Below, piece by piece: positions 1,140 to 3,357 of a stretch of DNA of 64,000 nt; the first letter of the stretch is position 1; each line of letters starts with the position of its first letter. Position numbers and translations under genes: made by a program. The notes beneath the pieces were generated by a model. That model saw only the letters and a program-made list of their open reading frames with translations, made no database searches and was not told the DNA's origin. The DNA lies in NCBI GenBank assembly GCA_963805855.1, contig CAWDVW010000007.1:640001-704000 (forward strand). Reading direction: 5' to 3'. The DNA comes from Candidatus Dadabacteria bacterium. GTDB taxonomy: Bacteria > Desulfobacterota_D > UBA1144 > Nemesobacterales > CSP1-2.

Positions 1140-2204
1140 ATGAATAGACAAAGTATAGATTACACAAATCAAGATTTTTTTCTAGGCATAGATGTGCATA
1201 AGAAGAGCTGGAAAGTAACGGTGAGGACTAACGGCATGGAGTTAAAGACTTTCTCCATGGATCCATCACCGGAGCAACTGTACGGATATATGCACAAGCG
1301 TTATCCGGGAGGAAACTATCACAGTGTGTATGAAGCAGGATTCTGTGGGTACTGGATTGATCGGGAGTTAAAGAGGTACGGGTTTAACAATATAGTAATC
1401 AATCCGGCAGATGTGCCTAGTACCCAGAAGGAGAAATCGACAAAGACCGACAAGGTGGATAGCCGTAAGCTGGCACGAGAGCTAGAGAATGGGTCATTGA
1501 GAGGGATATATGTACCGGATGAATTTCACCAACAATTGCGATCATTGTGCAGGCTGAGATTTAAGGTGGTACAGTCGCAAACTCGGCTTAAGAATCGGAT
1601 CAAGGGGTATTTAGCATTCTATGGTTATGTCATACCGCGCCATGATGAGATTGGTCACTGGTCTGGGGGATTTATAAGGTGGTTAAAGACATTAGAGTTT
1701 TCATACGGGATGGGTAGGGATTATCTTAGGCTATGTCTCGAGGAGCTAGAAAGTCATCGAAGGCGTTTAGCAGAGGTAGTGAAGTTGGTGCGGAAGTATT
1801 ATCGGGAATACGGGTTTGGGGAAGAGGTAAAGAATCTGCGTAGTGTGCCAGGGGTTGGTTTTGTAACAGCGATGACATTATATGGGGAACTGATGGATAT
1901 GAGTCGGTTCAGGAGTATAGACGATCTTGCTAGTTATGCGGGGTTAGTGCCATCGGTAAGTAGTTCTGGGGAGAGGGAGAGCACTCTGGGGCTCAGCTTT
2001 CGGCGTAACCGGTATTTACGGTACTTACTGATAGAGGCAGCGTGGGTAGCGATACGAGAAGATCCGGCTTTGGGGCATGTGTTTAGTCAATTGATCAGGC
2101 GGATGACCAAGCAGAAAGCGATAGTTCGGATCGCCAAGAAGTTATTGAACAGGATAAGATACGTGTGGAAGAATAAGGAGAGTTATGCTTATGGATTGAT
2201 TTGA
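1140..2204 (+). CDS. IS110-family transposase/recombinase
   Basis: GID18, YE65AG, KTD104KVD107 (DEDD RuvC-like domain); C-terminal SVPGVG and YAGLVPSVSSSG (catalytic Ser region). Confidence 0.96.
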   Translation: MNRQSIDYTNQDFFLGIDVHKKSWKVTVRTNGMELKTFSMDPSPEQLYGYMHKRYPGGNYHSVYEAGFCGYWIDRELKRYGFNNIVINPADVPSTQKEKSTKTDKVDSRKLARELENGSLRGIYVPDEFHQQLRSLCRLRFKVVQSQTRLKNRIKGYLAFYGYVIPRHDEIGHWSGGFIRWLKTLEFSYGMGRDYLRLCLEELESHRRRLAEVVKLVRKYYREYGFGEEVKNLRSVPGVGFVTAMTLYGELMDMSRFRSIDDLASYAGLVPSVSSSGERESTLGLSFRRNRYLRYLLIEAAWVAIREDPALGHVFSQLIRRMTKQKAIVRIAKKLLNRIRYVWKNKESYAYGLI

Positions 2205-2224: not shown

Positions 2225-2380
2225 TATGAAATCTCAAACAATAAAGTGTGGACCGCTATCGACTGGCTGCAAAGAAAATGTTTTACTGAGAGTGCGGCCA
2301 CAGGTTTGAGTGGTTTAATGAATTTAATGCAGCACTGCAAAGAGGCAGCTGACTGTTTATAACAGATTGATTCAAGATAG
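2225..2380 (+). ncRNA. Putative bridge/seek RNA of the IS110 element (ends approximate)
   Basis: Two stem-enclosed internal loops whose segments match the target site and the element end (see findings). Confidence 0.8.
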
Positions 2381-2913: not shown

Positions 2914-3357
2914 TTAACCTTTGCCTATACTCATATTTCTTTTCTTTTCTACTTTTGAACTGAACCTTTCGGCATCCACTATGAATCTCTCGTGTGTCCC
3001 CTCCGAGATGACATCAACTCCGTCGCTTGCAACGATAGAAAAGGTAAGCTTCCTTCCTTCGATTTTTATAAGTTCTCCTTTAACCTTGACCGTCAATCCG
3101 TAAGGGGTAACGGCAGAATGACTAAGTTTTACGTCAATCCCCACCGATTGTTCCCTCGGCCAATCTATATACCCATTGATGAACTTAATGCACGCCCACT
3201 CGATCAAGCCTATCATATATCCAGTAGCCAGCACTTTCGGCATCATTTGAAACTCCTCAGATTCAGGATAGAGGTATGGAACCGTCTTCGTCTCGGGAAT
3301 CGTAAAACCAAATTCAAAGGTCAACCCAGGTTTCAATGAATCATTCATACGTTGCAT
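2914..3357 (-). CDS. Hotdog-fold thioesterase, fluoroacetyl-CoA thioesterase (FlK)-like
   Basis: VLATGYMIGLIEWAC, SVGIDVKLSH and GTHERF motifs (Thr/Glu/His). Confidence 0.85.
   Translation of the reverse strand: MQRMNDSLKPGLTFEFGFTIPETKTVPYLYPESEEFQMMPKVLATGYMIGLIEWACIKFINGYIDWPREQSVGIDVKLSHSAVTPYGLTVKVKGELIKIEGRKLTFSIVASDGVDVISEGTHERFIVDAERFSSKVEKKRNMSIGKG

Follow-up and report, generated by a model that had tools for sequence, protein, structure and literature searches.

An IS1111-type IS110-family element with a putative two-loop bridge/seek guide RNA in its 3' non-coding end

The question raised by positions 2225-2380 of the window (the whole 64,000-nt stretch of DNA that was analysed, whose numbering is used throughout) was whether the non-coding DNA that follows a transposase gene specifies a guide RNA, and, if it does, which DNA each part of that RNA would read. 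A preliminary description had proposed that the region holds the bridge/seek RNA of an IS110-family element, with guides in two loops that match the target and the ends of the element. Covariation of both guides and helices in related elements supports this identification, and sequence comparison confirmed the flagged stretch as the predicted guide-RNA gene of an apparently intact IS1111-type element of the IS110 family. To the account as a whole, namely that 2229-2380 on the transposase strand encodes a two-loop guide RNA belonging to the element at 1062-2484, we would assign a probability of about 0.88. The parts of the element and of its insertion site are as follows.

1062-2484, + strand: complete IS1111-type element, 1,423 bp, in three copies in the genome
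1140-2204, + strand: transposase gene, 354 aa, the only long open reading frame of the element
1049-1061, + strand: left target half, with the core AG as its last two bases (1060-1061), lying within a REP-like hairpin, recognized from the flanks of the three copies
2485-2496, + strand: right target half (CCAGTCGAAGTG), recognized from motif location and copy flanks
1062-1066, + strand: first five bases of the left end, GAATT, the putative donor half for the 5' guide of loop 2
1067-1077, + strand: left subterminal inverted repeat ATGTTAAAAAG, starting five bases inside the terminus
2466-2484, + strand: right end, with TTGACT at 2466-2471 (candidate -35), the repeat CTTTTTACAT at 2469-2478 and the terminus ATAAC-AG

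The product of the transposase gene matched two Pfam transposase families, PF01548 over residues 15-160 (E 1.1e-16) and PF02371 (Transposase_20) over residues 231-310 (E 1.2e-22), and scored 216.8 bits, against a cut-off of 140, with the NCBIfam model NF033542, 'IS110 family RNA-guided transposase'. Residues D18, E65, D104, D107, G268, P271 and G277 are invariant among seven relatives, and residues 268-277, GLVPSVSSSG, fit the motif GL-P----S(t)G reported by Siddiquee et al. for the transposases of IS1111 (PMC11187229). The protein can be classed as a DEDD transposase of the IS110 family, in which D18, E65, D104 and D107 and the motif residues probably have, by analogy, a catalytic role. Matches to sequences in the PDB were weak, at E 3.9e-5 for the ISCro4 transposase and E 0.0046 for the IS621 transposase, the latter confined to the C-terminal part. 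Stronger than the IS621 match were those found by tblastn against plasmids, which comprised IS5075 and IS4321 (29% identity over residues 69-343, E 5e-16) and an unannotated match on a Shigella plasmid (30% identity over residues 9-302, E 2e-29). Even the best plasmid-borne relatives in the collection searched reach at most 36% identity over most of the protein, and the clade to which the element belongs appears to be distant from the named elements.

Outside the gene the element has 78 nt of non-coding DNA upstream (1062-1139) and 280 nt downstream (2205-2484), and near its termini it carries subterminal repeats, ATGTTAAAAAG at 1067-1077 agreeing with the reverse complement of CTTTTTACAT at 2469-2478 with one indel. 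Given these repeats, the longer downstream non-coding part and the rest of the anatomy, the layout is that of IS1111. A variable A/T position of the repeat covaries between left and right ends in 26 of 28 related loci, and the 19-mer of the right end (2466-2484) is present with at most four substitutions in most of the 90 sequences scanned. The dinucleotide AG stands just outside the left end, at 1060-1061, and again as the last two bases of the right end, at 2483-2484, and of 32 parsed loci 31 have AG at the left junction. One relative, L087, has the right-end motif (TTGACTTTTCACATAAC[AG]G) four times in tandem, 23 bp apart, at the end of the element (3121-3208).

Three copies of the element were found in the genome, which was searched as nine contigs (93.8% complete). 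Two agree throughout their 1,423 bp, and the third departs from them at four positions, one deleted base and three substitutions, none of them within the RNA region, which is thus the same in all three; the reading frame, too, is open in all three (a 363-aa open frame with no stops). Every copy lies in the sequence CTG-AG-CC[A/T]GTCGA, in the loop of a REP-like hairpin. The flanks of the window copy fit the target guides described below perfectly, and those of the other two copies do so with one mismatch each, at the same position. The free site ACTGAGCC[AT]GTCGA was not found in the 93.8%-complete assembly, where all three such sites are occupied, nor did the genome contain an unoccupied perfect target; a search of two genomes of the same genus for a precise empty site was also negative, other REP-like sequence standing there beside the left flank.

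That no such site is left free in the assembly is one of two observations that speak for an element that no longer moves in this lineage, whose RNA gene would still be intact and whose matches to its flanks would be a fossil of past insertions. The other is that the low-depth RNA-library contigs contained neither a circle junction nor a clear transcript. We nevertheless regard this reading as unlikely, given the identity of two copies over their full 1,423 bp, the four differences of the third, and the open frame and unchanged RNA region of all three. An intact element fits the sequence.

The hairpins into which the element is inserted belong to a genome-wide REP-like family (for example in G000 C7 and C5) of the form (G)TTCA-CACTGAG-NNNN-TCGAAGTG-TGAA(C). 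The loop pattern CTGAG-N4-TCGA[AG][GC] occurs at 38 sites in the genome, and the element uses the subset with a CC[A/T]G loop. On the right, the flank (2497-2570) runs into a repeat of ~60-80 bp (ATTGTAGATGTTAGATATTTCGTGGACAAAATC...) that is found at ~30 places in the genome with 82-97% identity, frequently with REP-like palindromes in front of it. Another intergenic repeat (...AACGCTTCCGGAATTGATTCTGG.AATTTTTTGAATGCCCATTTAA...) lies on both sides of the element's neighbourhood, at 88-150 and 2776-2840, and elsewhere in the genome it also follows, in reverse complement, several copies of the ATTGTAGATGTTAGATATTTCGTGGACAAAATC repeat.

For comparative analysis we assembled 93 related loci, 11 from species genomes, two from the window's taxonomic class and 80 from metagenomes; the records of the species-genome loci are named as Ignavibacteria, Bacteroidota and Calditrichaeota MAGs. 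The transposases of the relatives are 44-64% identical to that of the window, with one at 84%. To parse the segments we used regular expressions tied to conserved motifs of the stem and of the ends. The test of the loop-1 guides drew on the 51 parsed loci whose right flank was 10 nt or longer and whose stem score was 4 or higher; removal of identical guides left 46. L005, L022, L051, L060 and L068 fell below the stem score and were excluded from the loop-1 counts, as was the mis-parsed L053 through its low score; in L087 and L078, loop 1 was mis-parsed as well, and these were kept as misses.

The closest relative outside this genome, L016 (84% protein identity; G007:C68), was omitted from the counts. 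At about 1003-1126 of that locus a shortened loop 2 runs straight into the right end, as if the DNA between the 3' guide of loop 2 and the right terminus, which resembles it, had been deleted; the flank of this locus disagrees with the loop-1 guide. A second type of scaffold occurs in ~20 related loci (L034, L041, L048 and L073 among them), with loop 1 closed by GGACUG.../...CAGCC and holding an extra internal hairpin, and with a loop 2 like that of the window.

All motifs of the preliminary description were located in the non-coding end where it had placed them: CTCAAAC (2233-2239) with GTTTGAG (2304-2310), TGTGGACCGC (2247-2256) with GCGGCCACA (2294-2302), TCGACTGGCT (2259-2268), ACTGAG (2285-2290), ATAACAG (2359-2365 and 2478-2484) and CTGCAAAGA (at 2267 and 2335). 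Guides and helices, as they emerged from the comparison of relatives, are distributed over the predicted RNA as follows.

2233-2310, + strand: putative target-binding module, including an element-specific outer stem, 2233-2239/2304-2310
2246-2303, + strand: P1, 2246-2251 and 2253-2256 with 2294-2303, with bulged A2252, closing a 12 x 12 internal loop
2259-2268, + strand: 5' guide of loop 1 (UCGACUGG + CU), predicted to pair with + strand core and right flank, 2483-2492
2269-2281, + strand: P2, 2269-2271/2279-2281, the minimal distal hairpin of loop 1
2285-2290, + strand: 3' guide of loop 1 (ACUG + AG), equal to the final 4 nt of the left flank followed by the core
2321-2327, + strand: 5' guide of loop 2, AAUUU at 2321-2325 and, at the core position, unpaired AA at 2326-2327
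2329-2356, + strand: P3, 2329-2333 with 2351 and 2353-2356, with bulged A2352, in the distal stem-loop of loop 2
2335-2338/2345-2348, + strand: P4, in the distal stem-loop of loop 2
2359-2365, + strand: 3' guide of loop 2 (AUAAC + AG), identical to the right end plus core

In the window itself, TCGACTGGCT (2259-2268) is the exact reverse complement, over 10 nt, of the core and the first eight bases of the right flank, a match that was equalled in only one of 3,000 mononucleotide shuffles of the non-coding end. On the other side, 2285-2290 is identical to the left flank plus core, and therefore would pair with the minus strand. A 6-nt match of this kind arose in 516 of the 3,000 shuffles, so that it is weak when taken alone and the 3' guide needs other support.

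Such support came from the relatives. At least 7 consecutive nt of the 5' guide matched the reverse complement of the core and right flank of the same locus in 33 of 46 loci, compared with 51 of 2,052 non-cognate pairings, and the 3' guide matched its own left flank over at least 5 nt in 16 of 24 loci, compared with 42 of 550. The AG of the 3' guide is invariant in the 34 aligned RNAs. The guides thus change with the flanks, which is the covariation between guide and target that had been put forward as a check, and the two loop-1 segments that the preliminary description had singled out as guides hold up as such. Given this matching across relatives, it is reasonable to regard both loop-1 guides as target-programmed, as in published systems.

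To examine the structure we used a MAFFT alignment of 34 RNAs, for which RNAalifold gave a consensus of four helices. P1, which corresponds to the inner stem proposed for loop 1 (2247-2256/2294-2302), comprises 10 pairs with 94.4% of cells paired and covaries, five pairs showing compensatory changes; its first pair (2246/2303) is G-G in the window. P2 (helix 2) has 93.4% of cells paired and compensatory changes in three of four pairs, of which the window has only three, and helix 3 (P3 and P4) has nine pairs, 91.6% of cells paired and compensatory changes in seven. Taken together, P1-P4 are paired in 93.1% of 773 cells, as against 28-52% when the 3' partner was slid by 1-3 columns, and they contain 116 double-change cells, compared with 32.9 in shuffles and with none of 500 shuffles reaching 116. 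Three positions are mostly G.U or U.G (in 22, 22 and 28 of the 34 sequences), which fits folding of the transposase-sense strand only.

The stems proposed to close the two loops from outside fared differently. The outer stem 2233-2239/2304-2310 showed no covariation, and jointly with the proposed closing stem of loop 2 (2319-2328/2366-2374) it was paired in 45.2% of cells, against 44.0% in shuffles, 133 of 500 of which reached the observed value. An alternative closing stem for loop 2 taken from the minimum free energy (MFE) structure (2311-2313 and 2315-2319 with 2366-2370 and 2372-2374) was rejected, being paired in 57.5% of cells against 55.9% in shuffles, and a per-sequence duplex search for any closing helix of loop 2 gave none that was consistent (mean z -0.06; 6 of 34 sequences below -1.5).

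Folding had also been suggested as a check. The unconstrained MFE structure of 2229-2380 (-37.4 kcal/mol, z -1.5, a weak thermodynamic signal) contains the outer stem as well as P1-P4, and the four guide segments all lie unpaired in its loops of 12 x 12 and 9 x 9; 2229-2312 folds at -22.9 kcal/mol compared with -16.3 +/- 3.0 for shuffles; the fold of the whole non-coding end, 2205-2484, was no better than shuffles (z = 0.09). A covariance model built on the alignment, R1, found 84 matches in the 93 related loci, all on the transposase strand and 33 of them seeds, and in the genome of the window it found only the three copies. A scan of 900-2800 with Rfam, at E up to 10, returned no family, only chance-level microRNA and sRNA matches.

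The 3' guide of loop 2, ATAACAG at 2359-2365, had been described as identical to the right end plus core (2478-2484), and this identity extends to 41 of 61 loci; in 38 of the 61 both are simply ATAACAG, and matching substitutions in guide and right end occur in three loci, as ATAATAG in two and as ATGAC in one. The 5' guide had not been described as such. AAUUU at 2321-2325 pairs with the left-end bases GAATT (1062-1066) through four Watson-Crick pairs and one G.U, and AA at 2326-2327 stands where CU would pair with the core. In the relatives, the 7 nt before the P3 strand (TGCAGC) follow the reverse complement of the core and the first five bases of the left end, and the guide agrees with the start of its own left end at four or more of five positions in 16 of 19 cognate pairs, compared with 33 of 320 non-cognate ones, the two core positions both being matched in only 7 of 19 loci. 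Given that AAUUU would read the left end and covaries with it, part of what had been taken for the closing stem of loop 2 is better regarded as a guide for the left donor half.

Of the two motifs thought to form a scaffold common to both loops, the second (TGTT, guide, AG) fits the consensus of both. The first, CTGCAAAGA, does not have this role: in loop 1 it is the core plus a P2 strand (2267), in loop 2 it falls in the variable P4 hairpin (2335), and CTGCA is present in the loop-2 hairpin of only one of 34 RNAs, the window's own.

It is also conceivable that only loop 1 is a working guide, in the manner of a short seekRNA, with loop 2 serving structure or processing, and with the transposase recognizing the ends by way of the subterminal repeats and of flanks derived from the target. 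In favour of this, an 82-nt RNA of ISEc11, which on our reading has no second loop, gave 42% movement of a mini-IS, more than the 154-nt form did (PMC11187229); moreover, the near invariance of the loop-2 3' guide and the right end means that most of their identity is without covariation, and the loop-2 5' guide is only 4-5 nt long, with its core positions matched in 7 of 19 loci. Against it stand the covariation of the 5 nt before P3 with the first 5 nt of the left end, the three loci with matching substitutions in the 3' guide and right end, and the conservation of P3/P4 with compensatory changes, and we judge a second loop that is no working guide to be improbable. That there is no guide RNA at all, the flank similarity being due to chance or to the DNA level, or the region encoding the 53-aa open reading frame (TTG start) that overlaps it at 2201-2362, is scarcely credible: the 6-nt left-flank match is indeed common in shuffles, but the 10-nt match is not, the guides change with the flanks in relatives, the helices covary with strand-specific G.U pairs, and the gaps of varied length within the region in relatives do not suggest a conserved reading frame.

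We return, then, to the two-loop guide RNA, and to how it might be made. Contigs from RNA libraries (Logan) were found in four runs, with one to three short contigs each at a depth of ~2, three within the transposase gene. A 256-nt contig covers 2090-2345, and thus ends before the complete distal stem of loop 2 and the 3' donor guide; the contigs show no ends, strand or level, and may reflect DNA carry-over. In run X20, from a different study, a 256-nt contig reads G for A at 2236 and 2245. The change at 2236, which would turn an A-U pair of the outer stem into G.U, is also present in L016. In run X17 a 151-nt contig with three substitutions joins position 1602 of the element (window 1483-1602) to the right flank of the genome's second copy; the contig could be a chimera, or could come from another strain in which a copy has lost an internal part.

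By analogy with ISEc11 and IS621, the RNA might arise by read-through, or from a promoter that is reassembled where the ends join in the circle. TTGACT (2466-2471) and TATGTT (1066-1071), the latter a candidate -10 by analogy, would stand 17 nt apart across that junction, an arrangement that resembles the junction promoter of the ISEc11 circle (PMC11187229). Both hexamers lie within or adjoin the subterminal repeats, so that their conservation alone is no proof of a promoter. A promoter scan of the + strand within the linear element gave no promoter-like site.

The observations can be combined into the following scheme, in which the DEDD transposase, by analogy with ISEc11 and IS621, would bind the RNA, and the RNA would be needed for recombination and direct it. 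Loop 1, closed by P1 and capped by P2, would bind the target, with 2259-2268 pairing with the + strand of the core and right half and 2285-2290 with the minus strand across the left half and the core. Loop 2, arranged around P3/P4, would bind the donor, with 2321-2325 reading the five left-end bases and 2359-2365 the complement of the right end plus core. The circularized element and a matching REP-like hairpin loop would in this way be brought together, and strands would be exchanged at the AG dinucleotide with no duplication beyond the core. To judge from ISEc11 and IS621, the element may also be reprogrammable.

The core deserves separate comment. At the right junction of 53 parsed loci the dinucleotide is AG in 34, GG in 12, AA in five and AC in two, so that it is not AG in 19 of the 53 (for example L034, L041, L047, L059 and L083). 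By eye, the 5' guide of loop 1 follows the right junction in most of these loci (CC, UU, GU), while the 3' guides of loop 1 and loop 2 stay AG. The window's own element is the simple AG/CU case. The non-AG right junctions, and core positions that the 5' guide of loop 2 leaves unpaired, hint at asymmetric use of the core. It is possible, although we consider it doubtful as it stands, that the core is read asymmetrically in this clade, with a built-in mismatch or 'handshake' logic that might set the direction of recombination in IS1111-type elements; for IS621, such direction logic was worked out only in 2026.

As a natural case of RNA-guided recombination the element is well documented, and it comes from an uncultured lineage of sediments; in the collection searched, every plasmid-borne relative of its transposase stays below 40% identity. 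The guide positions of a compact RNA (~130-150 nt) are defined by dozens of naturally occurring pairs of guide and target, or of guide and end, in related elements, and these pairs offer raw material for surveys of bridge recombinase orthologues, leaving the known mechanism unchanged. Our search for literature on IS110 in Ignavibacteria brought up nothing relevant, and a similar scaffold may stand in ISfinder or in the supplements of papers.

Among known systems the closest likeness is to the IS1111 seekRNAs of ISEc11, ISPa11, ISKpn4 and ISPst6 (Siddiquee et al. 2024, PMC11187229). As there, the RNA would come from the 3' non-coding DNA after a DEDD transposase gene, the element has subterminal inverted repeats and no target duplication, and two short guides share one loop, with the one that pairs with the top strand lying 5'. 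The REP-like target is shared with ISPa11, and the division of -35 and -10 motifs between right and left ends with the ISEc11 circle junction. The order of the guides in IS1111 is reversed relative to IS110 (PMC11187229), and the reading on the minus strand with a CT core that the preliminary description had adopted is equivalent to this published order. Of the IS1111 elements listed by ISfinder, 93% have a predicted bridge RNA (Durrant et al. 2024, PMC11208160). The present element differs from the named IS1111-group members on plasmids, IS5075 and IS4321, in a transposase only ~29-30% identical to theirs, and from the seekRNA elements in that the hosts of its clade are uncultured Ignavibacteria/Bacteroidota-like sediment bacteria and that it is known here from sequence alone. 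It also has comparative evidence that the second loop reads the left end, which we did not find in the parts of PMC11187229 consulted.

With the IS621 bridge RNA (Durrant et al. 2024, PMC11208160; Hiraizumi 2026, PMC13626964) the predicted RNA shares two loops, 5' and 3' guides that address opposite strands around a dinucleotide core, and a CT core, which in this element is on the minus strand; the recombinases have the same set of domains. Unlike in IS621, the RNA lies in the right end and not the left, the guides stand in mirrored order with respect to the transposase, the element has long subterminal repeats, the 5' guide of loop 2 is without core pairing, and the transposase match is weak and C-terminal, as noted above. 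ISPpu9 and ISPpu10 of Pseudomonas putida (PMC12288879; bioRxiv 10.64898/2026.03.19.712850) are likewise IS110-family elements inserted in REP or conserved intergenic sequences, and ISPpu9 has extra orphan copies of its small RNA, whereas R1 found none in this genome. Set beside these systems, the element is a clear but ordinary new example of the mechanism described in 2024 (Siddiquee et al. 2024; Durrant et al. 2024).
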